A DNA stretch of 64,000 bases, from contig OY970192.1 in the NCBI GenBank assembly GCA_963708135.1, positions 5,344,001 to 5,408,000 of the forward strand. The letters run 5' to 3'. Every line of letters begins with the position of its first letter. Position 1 is the stretch's first letter. A program made the translations under genes and the position numbers. The notes below the pieces were generated by a model. The model was not told the DNA's origin and did no database searches. It worked only from the letters and a program-made list of their open reading frames with translations. This DNA comes from an uncultured Gemmatimonadales bacterium (GTDB lineage: Bacteria > Gemmatimonadota > Gemmatimonadetes > Longimicrobiales > RSA9). Positions 29,840 to 40,139 of the stretch are shown here, piece by piece.

Positions 29840-32560
29840 CTAGCGTCCCACCCAGTACGTCGCCTTGATCTGGAACACGTTCGTGGGCCGGTCGCGGAAC
29901 ATCGCCGCGCGCGCCTGGTCGAGGCCGAGCGAGCCCGACGGATCGGTGCCGGCGCGCTCCTGCGTCCAGACCAGGAAGAGGGTCGAGCCGGGGCGGTACT
30001 GCCAGCGCAGCACGGCGGTCCCGCGCAGCGACGTCGTCGTGAAGTCCGGGTTGTCGAAGGTGAATGCCTGCGCGGGGCCGGTCCCCCCGTCCGGGTCGAC
30101 GCGGTAGTCGGCCGTCGCGCTGTCGTACGCGATGCTGCCGCTGTCCTGGCCGTAGACGCGCTTGTCCAGCGTGCGCGGCCGGGCGAACTCGCGGAAGGAG
30201 GTGTAGCGCCCGCTGGCGACGAACGGCTGCGCGTAGAGCTGCAGCGTGAGGTCGGGCGAGACGGTCCAGTTCAGGCGGGTGTCGAGCGAGACGGTCCTCG
30301 TGCGGATGTAGGCGAAGACGTAGCGCTCGCCGTAGAACGACGTCGCCGTCGGGTCGGTCACGGCGGTCACGAACTGCGCGTCGTTCTCGTCCGACCGGTA
30401 GCTGGGCGAGATCTGCAGGAACAGGCTCGCGGCAGGCTTGAGCGCGACGCCGGGGCTGAAGGTGAAGGCGTGCGTCGGCGCGCCCACTCCGGCCGAGGCA
30501 TCCACGCGGAAGTCGAACACGGCGGGGGCGCGCGGGTCGGTCGAGATCTCGAGGCTGCCGAGGTCGTAGCCCGCGCGCCGGACCACGGGCCCGCCGCGCG
30601 TGAGCTGGTCGTCGAAGGAGGGCAGGTTGTGGATGCCCATGAGCCGCAGGTTCCAGTAGTTGGGCAGCTCGATGGCACCGAAGGCCTGCAGCTGGGCCCA
30701 GGTCCGGTCACCCTCGAAGTCGTACTGGGTGGCGCCGCCGAAGCTCGTGAAGATGTTGCGGTACCAGCTGGTGGGCGTGGTCCAGCTGCCTCCGACGTTG
30801 CCGTTGAGCCAGGCGTAGTCGGCGCGCGACAGGAAGGCCAGGTCGTTCACCTCGAAGCCCGGGCTGCGCACGTTCGCCATGGCCTCCCACAGCAGCGTGC
30901 CGTTGTCCTTCCCCACGCGCGTGAACAGGCCGTAGCCGCGCAGCGACGTCGCGGCCGTGTCGTAGCGCGCGGAGAACAGGCCGTCGCCCGACAGGTGCCG
31001 GCCCGGCCGCTGGAAGTAGTGGGCGCTGGAGCGCTCGGTCGCGGCGATGGCCGCGGGCGATCCTGCCACGTCGGAGAACAGCAGGCCGCCCATCCAGGAG
31101 TACTCCCGGTCACTCCAGGCGTGGCGCCAGTCGATGCCGGCGGCCTCGCCGTGGCTGCGCAGGCGGTCGCCCACGATGCTGTCCGGCACCTGCCGGACCA
31201 CGGATGTGAGGATGCCGCCCAGGGTGCTGGCTCCCGCGCGGAAATCCTTCTTCGCACGGCCGACGAAGTAGTTGGTGAGCGGCTCCACGACCTGCGTGGC
31301 GGGAGGCGCGCCCACGACCCCCAGATAGCGGGCGGTCTCCTGCGCCGTGACCGCGTCCAGCACGCCCACCGTGTAGCCGCCCTGCGTGCGGCCCGCGATC
31401 TTCGCGGCGCCGAGGATGGAGGTGGTCTCGGGCATGTCGGCGTATTCCGCGTGGTTGCCCACCCAGTCGTCCAGCTGCGGCGGCCGGCCGATGCGCCGCG
31501 AGTAGAACGCGCTCAGGCTGGAGGAGTTGCTGCAGAACATGCAGCGCATGCCGCCGAAGCTGAACGCGCTCGCGCCGGCGATGAAGAAGGGGCGCTTCTC
31601 CTCGTAGTAGGTCTCGAAGGCGCTCAGGTTGAGCGACGCCGGGTCCACCTCCACCTGCCCGAAGTCCGGGTTCAACGTGGCGTTCAGCGTCAGGTTCGAG
31701 GTGAGCAGCACCTTGATGTCGCCGCCCGCGGAGAGGCGAGTGGCGCGGCCGTCGTGGTAGGGGTCGCCGGGCGTGGCGTGGTCGAAGGTGCCGCCCGTGA
31801 CGGCGTACGGCAGCAGCTCGAGCTGCCGCGGCTGGGGCGGGATCTCCAGGCCGTCCAGCCGGCCGTAGAACGCCGGTCCGCCGGGCGAGTTCTGTCGCCA
31901 GAACGACCACATGTCGTGCTCGTTCAGCCGATCGATGTAGCGCCAGATCTGCAGCCCCCAGGTCTGCACGGAGTCGCGCGAGAAGCGCAGCTGGCTGAAG
32001 GGGATGCGAATCTCCGCGGTCCAGCCGAGCGAGTCCGCCCGCGCCGCCGCCTCCCAGACCGGGTCCCAGGAGGGATCTCCGTCGAGCTGGTCGCCCTTTA
32101 CTCCGGCCGGGTTCACCTCGAAGCGCGCGTCGTCCAGATGGTTGTGGTAGGGATCCAGGTCGATGACCAGCTTGTCGGTGGTGAGCGAGTTGAACGAGCC
32201 GTTGTCGCCGCTCGCGTCCAGCAGCTGGTCCCGCCGCGCCAGCGGCGCGACTACGCCGCCCGGCTGCCGCATGCGCGCGCCAATGTAGAGCGCGTGCGCG
32301 TCGTACAGGATCCGTACCTCCGTCGCGAGCGACGCCGGGGCGCCCTCCTCCGGCTGGTACTGCCGGAATCCCGTGATCGCCTCCGCCGTCCGCCATGCCG
32401 TCTCGTCGAGCAGGCCGTCGATGGCGATCGGACCGTTCCGCTGCGACGCGGCCGCCGCGGGCGTCGCCACCCCGTGTCGCTGCATCGCGCCCTGCGCGCG
32501 CACGGGCCCTGCGCGCAGGGCGAGGAGCAGGAGGGGAAGCAGAGGCCGCGCGTACCGCAT
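29840..32560 (-). CDS. DUF5916 / CBM9-like outer-membrane protein
   Basis: IDGLLDE, WTAEIRIPFSQLRF, NPDFGQVEVD, EKRPFF, FYSRRIG, LRWQYRPGS. Confidence 0.85.
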   Translation of the reverse strand: MRYARPLLPLLLLALRAGPVRAQGAMQRHGVATPAAAASQRNGPIAIDGLLDETAWRTAEAITGFRQYQPEEGAPASLATEVRILYDAHALYIGARMRQPGGVVAPLARRDQLLDASGDNGSFNSLTTDKLVIDLDPYHNHLDDARFEVNPAGVKGDQLDGDPSWDPVWEAAARADSLGWTAEIRIPFSQLRFSRDSVQTWGLQIWRYIDRLNEHDMWSFWRQNSPGGPAFYGRLDGLEIPPQPRQLELLPYAVTGGTFDHATPGDPYHDGRATRLSAGGDIKVLLTSNLTLNATLNPDFGQVEVDPASLNLSAFETYYEEKRPFFIAGASAFSFGGMRCMFCSNSSSLSAFYSRRIGRPPQLDDWVGNHAEYADMPETTSILGAAKIAGRTQGGYTVGVLDAVTAQETARYLGVVGAPPATQVVEPLTNYFVGRAKKDFRAGASTLGGILTSVVRQVPDSIVGDRLRSHGEAAGIDWRHAWSDREYSWMGGLLFSDVAGSPAAIAATERSSAHYFQRPGRHLSGDGLFSARYDTAATSLRGYGLFTRVGKDNGTLLWEAMANVRSPGFEVNDLAFLSRADYAWLNGNVGGSWTTPTSWYRNIFTSFGGATQYDFEGDRTWAQLQAFGAIELPNYWNLRLMGIHNLPSFDDQLTRGGPVVRRAGYDLGSLEISTDPRAPAVFDFRVDASAGVGAPTHAFTFSPGVALKPAASLFLQISPSYRSDENDAQFVTAVTDPTATSFYGERYVFAYIRTRTVSLDTRLNWTVSPDLTLQLYAQPFVASGRYTSFREFARPRTLDKRVYGQDSGSIAYDSATADYRVDPDGGTGPAQAFTFDNPDFTTTSLRGTAVLRWQYRPGSTLFLVWTQERAGTDPSGSLGLDQARAAMFRDRPTNVFQIKATYWVGR

Positions 32561-32674
32561 GGCGGCGCTGGAGTGGCGGCAACGTCAATGCGCGTGAGCG
32601 GCAGGATCCGGGCTGAGCTCGAGCAACGGCGTGGGCTTCATGCAATGCAGTCCTGACGAGGGTGCGAGTCCCGG

Positions 32675-33154
32675 GTGTCAGGACGTTGGATGGAACGACT
32701 GCCGACTTGGTTGCAGCGACCGGGGAGACTACCGCGCGGACCCCAAGGAGTTCGCCCGCAGCCACTCCTTCTATCCGGCCAATGCCGCCACCGGGTACCA
32801 GGTCCCCCAGCAGAATCCCACCATCCACCACTGTGGCACCGCCGGGGCGGCGGTCAGGCTCCCACGGTCGGCGAGTGCAACCAATTCTTCCGCGACCTCG
32901 TCAAAGAGATCAACCGGCTGGGACTGGGACGCCAGGGCGCCGTGCAGGCCCAGGTGCGCAGCGATCAGTACATGAGCAGCGCCGCCGTCCAGCAGCTCGA
33001 ACACAGCCCCTTCAAGACGACCCAGCAGCAGACCACCTACAAGCCGGCAGGAGCGGCGAGAGCGGTCGCCAAGCCGATCGAGCTGACGCGCGTCTTTCCC
33101 GGCGGCGGGGTCGCCAAGGCCACCACCACCTGGCGCCAGATCCAGGGGATCTAG
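32675..33154 (+). pseudogene. Degenerate hypothetical coding fragment
   Basis: The 3' half is coding-like (ECNQFFRDLVKEINRL..), but the 5' coding-like segment lies in a different frame. Confidence 0.3.
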
Positions 33155-33160
33155 CTTTCC

Positions 33161-33203
33161 CAAACAAGAATGGCCCCAACGCGCACAAGCGCCGTTGGGG
33201 CCA
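33161..33203 (-). terminator. Intrinsic terminator at the end of the tRNA array
   Basis: tggccccaacg..cgttggggcca hairpin followed by TTCTTGTTT on the minus strand. Confidence 0.75.
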
Positions 33204-33229
33204 TGATTTGCCCGGGTCGGAATCGACAG

Positions 33230-33313
33230 CGGAGGCGGAGGGACTCGAACCCCCAAGGGCTTGCGCCCGCCGCATTTCGAGTGCGGTGCCTTACCAGTTA
33301 GGACTACGCCTCC
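33230..33313 (-). tRNA. tRNA-Ser(CGA)
   Basis: CCGCA-CT CGA AA-TGCGG; variable arm. Confidence 0.92.
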
Positions 33314-33371
33314 AGGGGCTCGCGGCGGGCGACGAGGGCGCGGCCGCCTTCGTCGCCGTCCATGGTTTCAG

Positions 33372-33445
33372 TCGGGGAGACAGGATTTGAACCTGCGACC
33401 CCTGCGTCCCGAACGCAGTGCTCTACCGGGCTGAGCTACTCCCCG
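33372..33445 (-). tRNA. tRNA-Pro(CGG)
   Basis: CTGCG-TT CGG GA-CGCAG. Confidence 0.95.
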
Positions 33446-33488
33446 AAACCTGTGCTGCCTGCGGCGGGTCGGGAGCCCGCCGATCCAG

Positions 33489-33573
33489 CGGACGGGGTGG
33501 GATTCGAACCCACGAGGGCTCTCGCCCCACACGATTTCCAATCGTGCTCCTTAAGCCGCTCGGACACCCGTCC
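33489..33573 (-). tRNA. tRNA-Ser(GGA)
   Basis: CACGA-TT GGA AA-TCGTG; variable arm. Confidence 0.95.
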
Positions 33574-33629
33574 CGAACCCATCCCCGGCGCGTCGTCCGC
33601 CGCGTGGGCGGCGCCCGCTCCGGGCCGAA

Positions 33630-33715
33630 CGGAGAGGGTGGGATTCGAACCCACGCGGGCCTTTCGGGCCCGACGGTTTAGCAAACCGTTGCCGTAACCA
33701 CTTGGCTACCTCTCC
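33630..33715 (-). tRNA. tRNA-Ser(GCT)
   Basis: ACGGT-TT GCT AA-ACCGT; variable arm. Confidence 0.95.
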
Positions 33716-33780
33716 AAACCGTCGCTCTCCACGCCGCGGCGCGAGGCCCCGACGCGTGCTTCCTGGTGGACCGCATCCAC

Positions 33781-33948
33781 CTAGTGGACCGTATCCGAAG
33801 TAGCAATGGCATTCGCCGGCGGATCGGACGCGACCCGCCGCGTTGCTCGTCGTCGAAATAGCGCTGCTATTCCTTCCTCCTCGCGCCTTGCGCTTCGCGC
33901 CCGCTCCGCCGGCTCGGTGCTCACCGAACTTCAGATACGGTCCACTAG
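33781..33948. mobile_element. 168-bp MITE-like element
   Basis: 21-bp terminal inverted repeats (20/21 match) ctagtggaccgtatc(c/t)gaagt with CTAG at both ends; no ORF. Confidence 0.7.
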
Positions 33949-34021
33949 TTGCCCCTCCTGGGTTCGAACCAGGACTCTCCTGATCCAGAGTCAGGCGTGT
34001 TGCCAATTACACCAAGGGGCA
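33949..34021 (-). tRNA. tRNA-Gln(CTG)
   Basis: CCTGA-CT CTG GA-TCAGG. Confidence 0.95.
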
Positions 34022-34262
34022 GTCTCGCCCATCCGGCGCAGCCAGAGATTCGGATGAGCCCATCATCTTCCTGGTACGAGCGCGACGCACAGCGATGCGG
34101 CGCGCCTTTCACAGCCCAGCGAGACCCACCTGGCCGGGCACGATGCCGCCGATCCTGCGAGCAGCCCCGGACCTGGCGGGGGCCCTCTCCGGGCGCCATT
34201 CGAGCGCAACGCACAGCGATGCGGCGCGGCTCTTACACCCCTGCGAGACCCACCTGGCCGGG
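34022..34262. repeat. tRNA-linked repeat cluster 1 (one full 104-bp unit plus a partial copy)
   Basis: gtctcgc..ttcctggtacgagcgcgacgcacagcgatgcggcgcgcc..gcgagac at 34022-34125; partial copy at 34201-34262. Confidence 0.85.
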
Positions 34263-34371
34263 GGCCATCGCGTGCACTCGCAAGCGGGCCCGGGTTCGGC
34301 AAGCGGACAGGCGTCCCGGGAACCGCGTCCGGGTCGCGCACACGCACTGCACACAGGATGCCGCGATAAAG

Positions 34372-34444
34372 AGCGGGAGACGGGGCTCGAACCCGCGACC
34401 CTCAGCTTGGGAAGCTGATGCTCTACCAACTGAGCTACTCCCGC
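34372..34444 (-). tRNA. tRNA-Gly(CCC)
   Basis: TCAGC-TT CCC AA-GCTGA. Confidence 0.95.
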
Positions 34445-34449
34445 CGGAG

Positions 34450-34521
34450 AGCCACCGGTCGGACTTGAACCGACGACCGCTCGATTACGAATCGAGTGCT
34501 CTACCACTGAGCTACGGTGGC
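34450..34521 (-). tRNA. tRNA-Thr(CGT)
   Basis: CTCGA-TT CGT AA-TCGAG. Confidence 0.95.
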
Positions 34522-34528
34522 GGACCGA

Positions 34529-34602
<74 letters not shown>

Positions 34603-34639
34603 GGACCGTCTCTCTTCTTTCCGCTGCCGCGGCGCGGCA

Positions 34640-34713
<74 letters not shown>

Positions 34714-34749
34714 GGTCCTCTCTCGCTCGCCCCGCCAGGCGGCGGCCAG

Positions 34750-34833
34750 TGGTGGGGGTAGGATTCGAACCTACGTAGGCCTGAGGCCAGCAGATTTACA
34801 GTCTGCCCCATTTAGCCACTTTGGTACCCCACC
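34750..34833 (-). tRNA. tRNA-Tyr(GTA)
   Basis: GCAGA-CT GTA AA-TCTGC; variable arm. Confidence 0.95.
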
Positions 34834-34836
34834 GCA

Positions 34837-34910
34837 CGCGCCCGTGAGGACTCGAACCTCAAGCCTTCTGATCCGTAGTCAGATGCTCTATCCAATTGAG
34901 CTACGGGCGC
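34837..34910 (-). tRNA. tRNA-Arg(ACG)
   Basis: TCTGA-CT ACG GA-TCAGA. Confidence 0.95.
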
Positions 34911-34952
34911 CCGATCGCGTCCGTCTGCTGTCCCGGGACGCTTCCCCTCCGA

Positions 34953-35036
34953 TGCCCACGACAGGACTCGAACCTGTACGCCGTTGCCGGCACTGGTCCC
35001 TCAAACCAGCCTGTCTACCAATTCCAGCACGTGGGC
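34953..35036 (-). tRNA. tRNA-Leu(GAG)
   Basis: CTGGT-TT GAG GG-ACCAG; variable arm. Confidence 0.95.
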
Positions 35037-35039
35037 CGC

Positions 35040-35377
35040 GTCTCACCCACCCGGCGCAGCCAGCTGCCGGGATGAGCCAGACATCTTCCTGGTACGAGCG
35101 CGACGCACAGCGATGCGGCGCGCCCTTCCCCTGCAAGTGAGACCCGCTCTTCCCGGCGCCAGGCTCCTGAACAACCCGTTCAGCCAGCTGCCGGGATGAG
35201 CCAGACATCTTCCTGGTACGAGCGCGACGCACAGCAATGCGGCGCGCCCTTCCCCTGCAAGTGAGACCCGCTCTTCCCGGCGCCAGGCTCCTGAACAACC
35301 CGTTCAGCCAGCTGCCGGGATGAGCCAGACATCTTCCTGGTACGAGCGCGACGCACAGCAATGCGGCGCGCCCTTCC
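35040..35377. repeat. tRNA-linked repeat cluster 2 (124-bp tandem period, about 2.6 copies)
   Basis: Units start at 35057, 35181 and 35305; the first full unit gtctcac..gtgagac spans 35040-35143. Confidence 0.9.
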
Positions 35378-35384
35378 TCAAGAA

Positions 35385-35469
<85 letters not shown>

Positions 35470-35613
35470 GTAGTCCCGGGCCGGCAGATCGCTGCAGGCC
35501 GGGGTTGTCTCACCTTCGCGTCACGGACGCGTCCAGCAATGGCCCCCTGCGCCTGGGCCGGGGACGTGACGCGCACCCTGGGCTTCGCGGCGCCAGGAAA
35601 GGTGAGACGAGGA

Positions 35614-35686
35614 TGGAGCTGAGGGGAGTCGAACCCCTGACCTCCTGAATGCCATTCAGGCGCTCTCCCAACTGAGCTACAGCCCC
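35614..35686 (-). tRNA. tRNA-Ala(GGC)
   Basis: CCTGA-AT GGC AT-TCAGG. Confidence 0.95.
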
Positions 35687-35724
35687 ACGGTGGAACGGCC
35701 GTGCCGTTCCGGGATTCCGACCCG

Positions 35725-35754
35725 AGTTGTCAAGCAGCATCGCCGCGCGCGGCG
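35725..35754 (-). promoter_or_regulatory. boxB-like hairpin plus boxA-like antitermination motif
   Basis: Minus strand CGCCG-CGCG-CGGCG then TGCTGCTTGACAACT, resembling rrn boxA (TGCTCTTTAACA). Confidence 0.4.
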
Positions 35755-35777
35755 GCCGTACCTCTCACTTCGCTCAG

Positions 35778-35851
35778 CGGGGCTGACGGGACTTGAACCC
35801 GCGACCTCCGGTGTGACAGACCGGCACTCTAACCAGCTGAGCTACAGCCCC
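35778..35851 (-). tRNA. tRNA-Asp(GTC)
   Basis: CCGGT-CT GTC AC-ACCGG. Confidence 0.95.
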
Positions 35852-35875
35852 CTGAATCCTCTTCCTTCCCTCCAG

Positions 35876-35948
35876 AGCGGGCGACCGGACTCGAACCGGC
35901 GACCTTCTGCATGGCAAGCAGACGCTCTACCAACTGAGCTACGCCCGC
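35876..35948 (-). tRNA. tRNA-Gly(GCC)
   Basis: TCTGC-TT GCC AT-GCAGA. Confidence 0.95.
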
Positions 35949-35966
35949 GCTCTCTCGTCTCCCCAG

Positions 35967-36038
35967 TAGCCCCACGGGGAATCGAACCCCGGTTTCCACC
36001 TTGAAAGGGTGGCGTCCTGACCGTTAGACGATGGGGCC
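35967..36038 (-). tRNA. tRNA-Glu(TTC)
   Basis: CCACC-CT TTC AA-GGTGG. Confidence 0.95.
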
Positions 36039-36045
36039 CGCACGA

Positions 36046-36120
<75 letters not shown>

Positions 36121-36178
36121 CGTGTCTGTCGGCCTCGACCCCTCTTCGTCCCGGGGCCTCGCCCCGCCTTCCCTGCAA

Positions 36179-36251
36179 TACCCCCACGGGGAATCGAACC
36201 CCGGTTTTCTGGCTGAGAACCAGATGTCCTAGGCCACTAGACGATGGGGGC
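36179..36251 (-). tRNA. tRNA-Glu(CTC)
   Basis: TCTGG-TT CTC AG-CCAGA. Confidence 0.95.
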
Positions 36252-36511
36252 GTCTCGCCCATCCGGTGCAACCTCGCGCCGGCCGAACCCATGTCCTTCC
36301 TGGTACACGCGCGACGCACGGCGATCGTCTCGCCCATCCGGCGCAGCGCGCCGCCAGACCAAGCTGAACTTCTTCCTGGTACGCGCGCGACGCACAGCGA
36401 TCGTCTCGCCCATCCGGCGCAGCGCGCCGCCAGACCAAGCTGAACTTCTTCCTGGTACGCGCGCGACGCACAGCGATGCGGCGCGCCCTTCAAGACCGGC
36501 GAGACCCACCT
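36252..36511. repeat. tRNA-linked repeat cluster 3 (~76-bp tandem period, ending in a full 103-bp unit)
   Basis: Cores near 36295, 36371 and 36447; full unit gtctcgc..gcgagac at 36403-36505. Confidence 0.9.
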
Positions 36512-36547
36512 CGCTGGCATCCTCACATCCCCAATCCTCCTCCTCCA

Positions 36548-36620
36548 CAGGCCCGGAGGGACTTGAACCCCCAACCGCCGGTTTTGGAGACCGGTGCTCT
36601 ACCAGTTGAGCTACGGACCT
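36548..36620 (-). tRNA. tRNA-Trp(CCA)
   Basis: CCGGT-CT CCA AA-ACCGG. Confidence 0.95.
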
Positions 36621-36671
36621 AGAACCTCGGGGCATCGGCCGCGGAGCCGGGCTCGCGCGGGACGACGCACA

Positions 36672-36744
36672 TGGCCAGGGACGGGATCGAACCGCCGACA
36701 CCGTGATTTTCAGTCACGTGCTCTACCAACTGAGCTACCTGGCC
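36672..36744 (-). tRNA. tRNA-Phe(GAA)
   Basis: CGTGA-CT GAA AA-TCACG. Confidence 0.95.
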
Positions 36745-36770
36745 GGGCCGCGGCTCGGCTTCCGCCGACG

Positions 36771-36799
36771 AAAAACCCGCGCGGCGACGGCGGCGCGGG
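36771..36799 (-). terminator. Intrinsic terminator (candidate attenuator) inside the tRNA operon
   Basis: CCCGCGC-CGCCGTCGCC-GCGCGGG-TTTTT on the minus strand. Confidence 0.7.
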
Positions 36800-36834
36800 C
36801 GGGCGGGGAAGCGAGCGCGAACAGCGTTGACGCG

Positions 36835-36945
36835 CTAGGCTCCTCCCGCGGCGCTCGCCGCGTACGGCCAAGAGTCTACGTCCGCCCCGGCGCGCGGCGC
36901 ACCAGAGCGCGAGCGGACTCGCGCGAGCGGACGTGGAGCCTTCAT
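36835..36945 (-). CDS. Putative 36-aa leader peptide MKAPRPLARVRSRSGAPRAGADVDSWPYAASAAGGA
   Basis: AGGAGG 5 nt before the ATG; stop about 35 nt before a terminator hairpin. Confidence 0.55.
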   Translation of the reverse strand: MKAPRPLARVRSRSGAPRAGADVDSWPYAASAAGGA

Positions 36946-36992
36946 GCTCTCCTCCTGGACCGCGTGCCCCGGACGGGTCCGGAGCGGGAAAA

Positions 36993-37066
36993 TAGCGGGG
37001 GCGGGATTTGAACCCGCGACCTCCGGGTTATGAGCCCGGCGAGCTACCAGACTGCTCCACCCCGCG
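36993..37066 (-). tRNA. Initiator tRNA-fMet(CAT)
   Basis: C1:U72 mismatch; three G:C pairs in the anticodon stem; CT CAT AA loop. Confidence 0.95.
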
Positions 37067-37084
37067 TCAGTGTTCAGGCAGAGA

Positions 37085-37113
37085 AGTATAGCGGCGGTCG
37101 GGGGGTGTGTCAA
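37085..37113 (-). promoter_or_regulatory. Near-consensus sigma70 promoter of the tRNA array
   Basis: TTGACA (37113-37108), 17 bp, TATACT (37090-37085). Confidence 0.85.
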
Positions 37114-37247
37114 CCCGATCGAACGGGTCGCGGAGAGGCGCGATTCTTGGCGGTACGACGCGAAAAAAGCGGTGGGCCGGGCGCGAGCGAAGCGAGACCC
37201 GGATGGCGCCGGGAAGCGGCTTGCGCGCGGGGGCCACGGGTGCTCCT

Positions 37248-37337
37248 GTGGGGTTGGGGTTGTGGTTGTGGTTTTGGTTTTGGTTTTGGTTCAGGGGGTG
37301 GTGGGGTGGGAACCAAAACTCCAACCAGAACCACAAC
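37248..37337. repeat. GGTT(T/G)T hexamer run with an inverted partner
   Basis: gttgtggttttggtt.. can pair with ..aaccagaaccacaac. Confidence 0.65.
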
Positions 37338-37367
37338 GGAGCTGAACTCATCGGAAGGGCGGACGGC

Positions 37368-40139
<2,772 letters not shown>

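Follow-up and report, generated by a model that had tools for sequence, protein, structure and literature searches.

A conserved internal terminator and a short upstream open reading frame between the initiator and elongator genes of a primary tRNA operon in Gemmatimonadota: a candidate attenuator

How does a cell obtain 21 elongator transfer RNAs (tRNAs) from a promoter that lies on the far side of an intrinsic transcription terminator, and what might a terminator in such a place control? The question is raised by a 64,000 nucleotide (nt) stretch of DNA, hereafter the window, from an uncultured Gemmatimonadales bacterium (assembly GCA_963708135.1, contig OY970192.1, positions 5,344,001 to 5,408,000; GTDB lineage Gemmatimonadota; Gemmatimonadetes; Longimicrobiales; RSA9), in which an initiator tRNA gene (tRNA-fMet) is followed on the minus strand by a Shine-Dalgarno (SD) sequence, a 36-codon upstream open reading frame (uORF; ORF for open reading frame), a GC-rich hairpin with five U residues and an array of elongator tRNA genes (Table 1). 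The original prediction, a leader-peptide attenuator that gates a tRNA array, had listed these parts together with a promoter, and each of them is confirmed at its position; the feature is real and conserved, and the anatomy first described was right in every coordinate checked. The proposal developed here, to which we assign slightly less than an even chance, is that an inherited internal terminator serves as the attenuator of the primary tRNA operon and that the cis-acting uORF is a lineage-specific modulator of it.

Table 1. Features of the tRNA operon and its leader, with positions in the window.
Feature	Position	Strand	Basis or remark
Sigma-70-type promoter TTGACA-17-TATACT of the tRNA operon	37085..37113	-	11/12 consensus positions matched
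tRNA-fMet, Met(CAT)	36993..37066	-	65.3 bits; only initiator-type CAT tRNA gene in the genome
Hairpin H1, 8 bp, directly behind the tRNA	36966..36985	-	Minimum free energy fold; recurrent in relatives; two-sided changes in 4/7 pairs; 82% of cells paired
Shine-Dalgarno sequence AGGAGG, 5 nt 5′ of the ATG	36951..36956	-	16S 3′ end is the canonical ..CACCTCCTT
uORF, 36 codons + TAG (ATG at 36945, TAG at 36837-36835)	36835..36945	-	Homologous ORFs in relatives
Hairpin H2, inside the uORF	36887..36905	-	Minimum free energy fold; two-sided changes in 5/8 pairs; 80% of cells paired
Codons of the best-conserved part of the peptide, D-V-D-S-W-P (D-x-D-S-W-P in the family consensus)	36865..36882	-	Peptide alignment
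G-rich 3′ end of the uORF (..GCGGGAGGAGCC)	36838..36853	-	CGCGGGAG conserved; may pair with the C-rich tract or with the 5′ arm of the terminator
C-rich tract abutting the 5′ side of the terminator, 3′ strand of putative helix P1	36800..36811	-	GGG:CCC pairs recur; 61% of cells paired, almost invariant
Intrinsic terminator: CCCGCGC..GCGCGGG, 7-bp GC stem + 2 inner pairs, then U5	36771..36799	-	Folding; relatives
tRNA-Phe	36672..36744	-	26 nt 3′ of the U-tract
21 elongator tRNA genes	33229..36744	-	Order conserved in relatives
boxA-like motif GCTGCTTGACAAC, Asp-Ala spacer	35726..35738	-	1 match in the window, 0.09 expected
Operon-closing hairpin + T-rich tail	33162..33204	-	By eye: 12-bp stem ATGGCCCCAACG/CGTTGGGGCCAT, then TCTTGTTT

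The dependence of the elongator genes on the distal promoter is the first point to be settled. When 32500-38000 was scanned on both strands, the only promoter-like site was that at 37113..37085 (shuffled sequences gave a mean of 0.3), which agrees with the earlier remark that the array seemed to lack another clear promoter. Relatives have an equivalent TTGACA/-10 pair 5′ of tRNA-fMet, the tRNA promoters of the family are plainly sigma-70-like, and no hairpin with a T-run was found in the other spacers of the array. Since no second promoter was found behind the terminator, the 21 elongator tRNAs need polymerases that read through it. A different arrangement can be envisaged, in which a short tRNA-fMet/uORF unit ends completely at the hairpin and the 21 tRNAs are served by a promoter of their own, of a type unseen by the scan. 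The U5 hairpin looks efficient, and in other classes of the phylum a hairpin with a T-run follows tRNA-fMet within 5–13 nt at all five loci fetched, with no further tRNA gene found within the ∼530 nt fetched downstream, so that the initiator gene there looks like a unit of its own. However, the 26 nt between the U-tract and tRNA-Phe offer no room for a -35 and a -10 element, nor do the ∼20 nt left between the end of the T-run and tRNA-Phe in one sister family, where the whole Met-Phe spacer measures 52–57 nt, and inspection by eye, the only check made for it, showed no extracytoplasmic function (ECF)-type or other promoter overlapping the terminator. A separate promoter for the array is therefore considered improbable.

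The genome is a single contig of 5.45 Mb with a GC content of 72%, in which ARAGORN predicts 65 tRNA genes and one transfer-messenger RNA (tmRNA), 66 genes in all. Three CAT tRNAs are present, and only the copy that heads the array has the 1:72 mismatch and the three G:C pairs of the anticodon stem (by eye). The elongator genes follow in the order Phe, Trp, Glu, Thr, Glu, Gly, Asp, Ala, Leu, Leu, Arg, Tyr, Val, Ala, Thr, Gly, Gln, Ser, Ser, Pro, Ser and include the sole genomic copies of Phe-GAA, Trp-CCA, Leu-CAG, Leu-GAG, Val-GAC, Ser-GGA, Ser-CGA, Pro-CGG and Thr-CGT; the order Met-Phe-Trp-Glu-Thr-Glu-Gly-Asp-Ala-Leu-Leu-Arg-Tyr-Val is common to relatives of many genera. Because it combines sole-copy tRNAs, the sole initiator and a gene order shared across genera, the array is the primary (housekeeping) tRNA operon of the chromosome and not a mobile spare array. 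Its 22 tRNA genes in 33229-37066 (3.84 kb; 5.7 per kb), read as sharing one promoter, place it within the tRNA array units, which by definition hold 20 or more tRNA genes and no fewer than two per kb (Tran et al., 2015; PMC4758250). The array units described in mycobacterial papers are found on plasmids and phages besides chromosomes, whereas the present array is chromosomal, syntenic and furnished with sole-copy tRNAs; the string ‘Gemmatimon’ is absent from the main text of Tran et al. (2015).

Conservation was assessed with terminator-like sites defined as hairpins of at least 5 pairs, at or below -9 kcal/mol, that end within 2 nt of a T-rich run. Such a site lies between tRNA-fMet and tRNA-Phe in 36 of the 39 family genomes from which a Met-Phe spacer was retrieved, in 14 of the 16 loci fetched from two sister families of the same order, and behind tRNA-fMet in 14 of the 20 fetched elsewhere in the phylum. 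The family counts, here and for the ORF below, include four unpublished genomes, G015 and G085 (both ORF-bearing) and G016 and G019 (terminator only), without which the terminator is found in 32 of 35 genomes and the ORF in 18 of 35 (12 of 24 genera); the sister-family tally likewise includes G038, and the results based on alignments include L011 and L055 (from G015 and G085). The hairpin is a GC-rich stem-loop of about -16.6 to -18.6 kcal/mol with an immediate U-tract, U5, as expected of an intrinsic terminator, in a genome where runs of five or more T residues are rare (321 on both strands, 86 of them with a strong hairpin) and where the terminator motif itself occurs once. Its 5′ arm, CCCGCGC, is invariant in the 20 ORF-bearing sequences (92.5% of cells paired), and the stem, being invariant, shows no covariation within the family. 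Between families the sequence of the terminator differs while the hairpin and the T-run stay.

The simplest history is that the initiator's own terminator stayed in place when the elongator array arrived downstream of it. That it has been kept across the order despite the sole-copy tRNAs behind it argues for a stop that is partial or regulated. As judged from the comparison of genomes, the terminator would be the core element of the locus and the ORF a dispensable modulator at most, since 17 of the 19 family genomes that have no ORF keep the terminator. No further copy of the spacer turned up elsewhere in the genome when its alignment served as the nhmmer query, and an Rfam scan of 32500-38500 at E <= 1 returned only tRNAs and chance matches, with none in the spacer. 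In the Met-Phe spacers of relatives at seven loci (L022, L034, L038, L039, L040, L044 and L050) one or two partial copies of the 5′ half of tRNA-Phe (GGCCAGGTAGCTCAGTTG..) stand between the terminator and the real tRNA-Phe, which looks like local duplication by slippage or recombination.

A close counterpart to this gene order is the Escherichia coli metY-(t1,t2)-rimP-nusA-infB operon, described in PMC6511841 as beginning with an initiator tRNA gene behind which internal intrinsic terminators must be passed. That operon differs from the present one in having protein genes downstream, an extra internal promoter (P2) and no ORF between the tRNA and the terminators. Five loci of one sister family (f2; L062, L063, L064, L066 and L067) have two terminator-like hairpins behind tRNA-fMet, one right after the tRNA (CGCCGCC..GGCGGCG TTTT) and the other before tRNA-Phe, and in L062 and L063 an ORF lies between them; the pair is reminiscent of t1 and t2 behind metY. 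The rimP-leader of the same E. coli operon is a sequence-conserved stem without a visible antiterminator, and in the account of Naville and Gautheret (PMC2965389) this combination was the ground for arguing that a protein factor acts on it. The same argument could be made here, and the terminator might accordingly be regulated by NusA, NusG or an rRNA-type antitermination complex rather than by the ribosome: the stem is invariant in 20 of 20 sequences with no antiterminator in view, metY too is followed by t1 and t2, H1 resembles a hairpin of the ribosomal RNA (rRNA) leaders, and a boxA-like motif occurs inside the array. Yet the window has no boxA-like motif between promoter and terminator, and a boxA upstream of the terminator, tried as the cause of read-through, was not found in its Met-Phe spacer; the same stem is a common terminator in many phyla, 119 of the 120 matches listed lying outside any Met-Phe locus; the invariance within the family may reflect recent ancestry; and a conserved ORF would be left unexplained. 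Regulation by such a factor is thus held to be unlikely, though a little less so than a separate promoter for the array. Nor is the hairpin itself a rimP-leader, for which a GGGc..gCCC stem with a U-stretch upstream of rimP-nusA-infB is described: its 5′ arm is C-rich and tRNA genes lie downstream. A CCCg..cGGG terminator upstream of the rimP-leader is described for Gammaproteobacteria in the same source (PMC2965389). A separate hairpin of the rimP type, GTGGGGGAC..CCCCCAC followed by T6, is present in this genome at G000:C1 ∼1017105-1017130 (+), ∼570 nt 5′ of a NusA_N match, and its G-rich 5′ arm fits the rimP-leader as described there.

Signals of the rRNA antitermination type are seen at other positions. 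The boxA-like GCTGCTTGACAAC of the array resembles the GCTGTTTGA(C/A)AA..CGAGGTCG of both rRNA leaders (upstream of 103284 (+) and of 1596778 (-)), in each of which a hairpin of the GCCGGAC..GTCCGGC type, to which H1 is similar, precedes the boxA-like motif. In some relatives (L014, L207 and L209) TGTTTGACA motifs are found behind the terminator. There are hints here of rRNA-type antitermination signals in the tRNA operons of the phylum.

The hairpin and its flanks could also be mainly an element of processing or stability, either a stem for ribonuclease III (RNase III) or a 3′ stabilizer of an excised spacer RNA, with little termination. The C-rich tract and the G-rich CGTCGGCGG after the U-tract could form a longer enclosing stem (by eye), and RNase III releases metY from the operon transcript in E. 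coli according to PMC6511841, but a U-tract directly follows the stem in the 36 of 39 genomes, a feature needed for termination and not for a processing stem. This possibility is regarded as very unlikely.

In part of the family a reading frame lies in front of the terminator. An alignment of the spacers across relatives, which had been suggested as a check of the frame, bears it out: from genus to genus the ORF keeps its start, its frame, its stop and its spacing from the terminator. An ORF of 31–44 codons occupies the homologous place in 20 of the 39 family genomes (14 of 28 genera), and it is present in every family spacer with at least ∼150 nt between tRNA and terminator (n = 20). It starts with ATG in 17 cases and GTG in three, ends at the homologous place with TAG (nine), TGA (nine) or TAA (two), and differs in length only by whole codons, the indels falling in threes; the stop lies 25–35 nt before the terminator stem in all 19 sequences measured, L057 being set aside because its terminator was mis-located by the script. 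In 13 of the 20 the start has a 4-mer SD core in front of it (by eye), and the short ORF with a ribosome-binding site that is expected of a leader-peptide attenuator is therefore present. Dinucleotide shuffles yield an ORF of such size and placement in ∼6% of trials per sequence, and in <1% when an SD is required as well. In a sister family, three loci carry an SD-led ORF with a related S-D-T-W-S core, the stop of which lies 22–26 nt before a terminator that is their own and different in sequence. Some ORF-less genomes keep a small hairpin whose 5′ strand resembles the G-rich end of the ORF (by eye).

The encoded peptide is far less constrained than the frame. Its consensus, MxxxRxxxRxRSxxGAxRAGxDxDSWPxxAGxx, has no invariant column, and the Trp of the D-x-D-S-W-P stretch is found in 14 of the 20 ORFs (by eye). 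Pooled over 16 pairs, the ratio of non-synonymous to synonymous change (pN/pS) is 0.80, with 162, 157 and 195 differences at the three codon positions. None of 19 ORF peptides has a match in Pfam, and a search of 5.8 billion proteins with the peptide alignment returned three matches of 33 amino acids (aa), one of them named ‘hypothetical protein’. Because start, frame, stop and terminator distance are kept while the peptide drifts, the act of translation appears, on comparative grounds, to be under selection and the product hardly so, which is the signature of a cis-acting uORF; the uORF would most likely act in cis through being translated and not through its peptide.

These same data can be read in a simpler way. 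A constitutive, leaky terminator could fix the ratio of initiator to elongator tRNAs, with the ORF as a passenger, that is, either a gene for a dispensable small basic protein that uses the strong tRNA promoter, or a frame that stays open only through structural constraint on the RNA (H2 and the G-rich end). The terminator stands without the ORF in most sister-family loci as well as in the ORF-less genomes counted above, pN/pS is high and GC content across codon positions is flat (see below), and open frames come easily at 72% GC. The leader peptides are enriched in Ser, Trp, Arg, Ala and Gly and depleted in Leu, Ile, Met and Asn, and such an amino-acid make-up is expected from translating GC-rich non-coding DNA in any frame. 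H1 and H2 covary in the aligned sequences, and H2, inside the uORF, may be conserved as RNA. A passenger ORF is nevertheless hard to reconcile, unless translation is selected for, with ATG or GTG in 20 of 20 sequences, three stop codons interchanged at one place and indels in threes in 14 genera; shuffles, as stated, seldom give an ORF with an SD, and the narrow stop-to-stem distance suggests coupling. The constitutive explanation is accordingly thought unlikely, although it deserves more weight than either factor-mediated regulation or a second promoter.

Base-pair probabilities averaged over the 20 ORF-bearing sequences give four recurrent helices: H1 and H2, both supported by two-sided pair changes; P1, formed by the G-rich last codons with the C-rich tract; and the terminator. 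Over the whole structure 82% of cells pair, as against 37–53% when the partners are slid by one to three columns, although the fold of the whole spacer (z = -1.76) is not distinctive for a GC-rich RNA. In folds of the nascent RNA that end at the terminator loop, 14 of 20 sequences have the 5′ arm paired to the stop region or to one of the last ten codons' stretches of the ORF. The original prediction had called for folds with and without a ribosome at the stop codon. With a 30-nt ribosome mask placed there in equilibrium folds, the probability of the terminator, P(terminator), rises by >0.2 in 6 of 20 sequences, stays within 0.2 in 13 and falls by >0.2 in one, the single lowered case being L057 with its mis-located terminator; no consistent switch emerges. 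The alternative pairings that had been quoted, CGCGGG at 36850-45 and GCGAGCGC (36858-51) with GCGCTCGC (36818-11), are present in the window; they are not conserved in relatives and do not add up to a consensus antiterminator. The direction originally proposed, in which a ribosome on the end of the ORF favors termination and a lagging ribosome favors read-through, is compatible with the folds.

A number of results weigh against sensing of translation by this leader. The ORF is lost in 19 of the 39 family genomes, even within one genus (g4; three genomes with it, four without), 17 of these 19 keep the terminator nonetheless, and the SD core is missing in 7 of the 20 ORFs. GC contents at the three codon positions of the 20 ORFs (GC1/2/3) are 0.72/0.73/0.75, flat and non-coding-like, whereas long genes (419 plus-strand ORFs with GC3 > 0.8 and a length of 600 aa or more) have 0.74/0.53/0.90. 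The observation that the uORF uses many A/T-ending codons holds to the extent that its GC3 is 0.72 against 0.90; this reflects the flat, non-coding-like profile and not a set of conserved rare codons. There is no run of regulatory codons, and the codons cognate to the controlled product that a leader-peptide attenuator would have are lacking: codons read by the array tRNAs amount to only 84% against 76%, an enrichment too small for the idea that the leader samples these codons, which was rejected. A consensus antiterminator was not found, RNAalifold keeping the terminator alone with 0 compensatory pairs, although the invariant terminator arm leaves no room for antiterminator covariation to show. 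In 9 of 20 sequences P(terminator) is at least 0.98 with or without the ribosome mask, and a mask at the conserved Trp codon, too, favors the terminator (mean P(terminator) 0.64 free, 0.77 with the mask at the stop, 0.82 at the Trp codon). Duplexes between the ORF end and the terminator arm (-19 to -35 kcal/mol) are no better than shuffles that keep composition (mean z -1.2); native pairs are slightly stronger than cross-species pairs (-26.8 versus -25.6 kcal/mol, permutation p 0.028), a difference that few sequences drive and that is uncorrected for relatedness. In E. coli, according to PMC4824070, repression of a terminator by a ribosome standing at a stop codon is confined to short distances and termination efficiency is maximal beyond ∼30 bp, so that by analogy occlusion by the ribosome would be fading at the 25–35 nt that separate stop and stem here. 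At such a distance any effect of the ribosome must go through an upstream helix and not through direct occlusion of the terminator.

With these points in view, the attenuator proposed here may be outlined as follows. A single sigma-70-type promoter would drive the sole initiator gene, and behind it H1, the SD-led uORF and the terminator would come to be transcribed ahead of 21 elongator genes that have no promoter of their own. The initiator's terminator would thereby have turned into an internal attenuator, which no polymerase could avoid on its way to the genes for Phe, Trp, Leu and the other elongator tRNAs, and, judging from anatomy and conservation, it would set the ratio of initiator to elongator tRNA synthesis and offer a natural control point. 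A ribosome over the G-rich last codons would prevent their pairing with the C-rich tract or the terminator 5′ arm and let the terminator fold; when translation lags, pairing of the G-rich end may delay the terminator and let more polymerases through, both the direction and the size of this effect being inferred. A ribosome-sensing mechanism of this kind is plausible. The full claim, that a translation-sensing attenuator operates in the primary tRNA operon of a free-living bacterium, that the sole initiator tRNA is made at all times and that the promptness of the ribosome at the G-rich frame end sets the passage of polymerases into the 21 elongator genes, is put forward only as a doubtful possibility. 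What survives of the attenuator as originally conceived is one promoter, the initiator gene first, the SD-led ORF, the terminator and the dependence on read-through; the trp-like antiterminator pairings find no support beyond their G-rich and C-rich composition.

Among known systems, the leaders trpL, hisL, pheL, leuL, thrL and ilvL share with this locus a short, SD-led ORF near the promoter and, between it and the controlled genes, an intrinsic terminator (here 36799-36771). In those amino-acid leaders, as here, start and stop are preserved and the peptide is free to change, and H2 takes the place of a 1:2-type hairpin. The present locus differs in that tRNAs are controlled and the leader is preceded on its transcript by a tRNA gene, and in having no regulatory-codon run, no conserved 2:3 antiterminator and a stop 25–35 nt before the stem. 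Closest in logic is the uORF attenuator of whiB7/wblC in Actinobacteria, a general sensor of translation stress for which no codon run is needed; according to PMC10274678, efficient translation of the uORF leads to a Rho-independent terminator and poor translation to read-through. The whiB7/wblC element differs from the present one in that it controls a transcription factor and has a defined antiterminator, none having been found here, and there is no sequence relation between the two.

A small ORF in a tRNA operon has a further parallel. The E. coli tyrT operon carries the small, basic, arginine-rich tpr ORF in its 3′ trailer; the likeness lies in a small arginine-rich ORF within the transcript of a tRNA operon, although tpr is located after the tRNAs. 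We know of no role for tpr as a gate for downstream tRNAs, and no description of a leader-ORF attenuator, or of a leader ORF plus terminator, ahead of tRNA genes was found in searches of open-access text. In the textbook picture, bacterial tRNA synthesis is controlled at promoters, through growth rate and guanosine tetraphosphate (ppGpp). If the attenuator proposed here is real, it would add to this a control point after initiation that reads translation itself, a feedback in cis that keeps initiation capacity, the supply of elongator tRNAs and translation speed in balance and that is conserved across at least one order of Gemmatimonadota, and with it the initiator-to-elongator ratio could be set simply from a single promoter. 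The parts of this short element are clear (SD, ATG, stop, hairpins and U-tract), and natural variants without the ORF occur within one genus.

A weak hint of expression comes from a metatranscriptome contig of 330 nt (X10, depth 3.4) from a ∼95% identical relative, which aligns to 36715-37046 and bridges tRNA-Phe, terminator, ORF and tRNA-Met; it may represent an unprocessed read-through precursor, although carry-over of DNA is possible. Relative to the uORF of the window it differs by a single non-synonymous change, at codon 2, and by two third-position changes that are synonymous; its indels are confined to sequence outside the ORF. A search of sequencing runs produced no run with half or more of the sampled words of the stretch (best 0.24), the shares recovered being parts of tRNAs that are uninformative about the spacer.

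Within the array, the long spacers are made of tandem repeats, with a 124-nt unit in 2.6 copies (99% identity) and a 76-nt unit in 2.4 copies (98%), at 35057-35377 and 36296-36477 of the window (also 34022-34370); a motif ..GCGCGCCGCATCGCTGTGCGTCGCGC..GTACCAGGAAGA.. is common to three array spacers, and the spacers of relatives are short at these places. Several ARAGORN tRNAs are over-long (Asp 96, Ala 98, Gly 91, Tyr 95, Glu 91 and Ala 88 nt) and may be false or intron-bearing, and the genome also has a selenocysteine tRNA (tRNA-SeC) and a tmRNA with the tag ANSNMALAA. The neighbor of the operon on the upstream side is a divergent GH63-like glycosidase gene, and that on the downstream side is a DUF5916/CBM9 gene. 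A hairpin with T6 is located at ∼37165-37200 on the minus strand, just 5′ of the tRNA promoter, and the divergent region between this promoter and the GH63-like gene contains a GGTTTT/GGTTGTGGTTTT repeat (5.7 and 3.3 copies) at 37252-37291.

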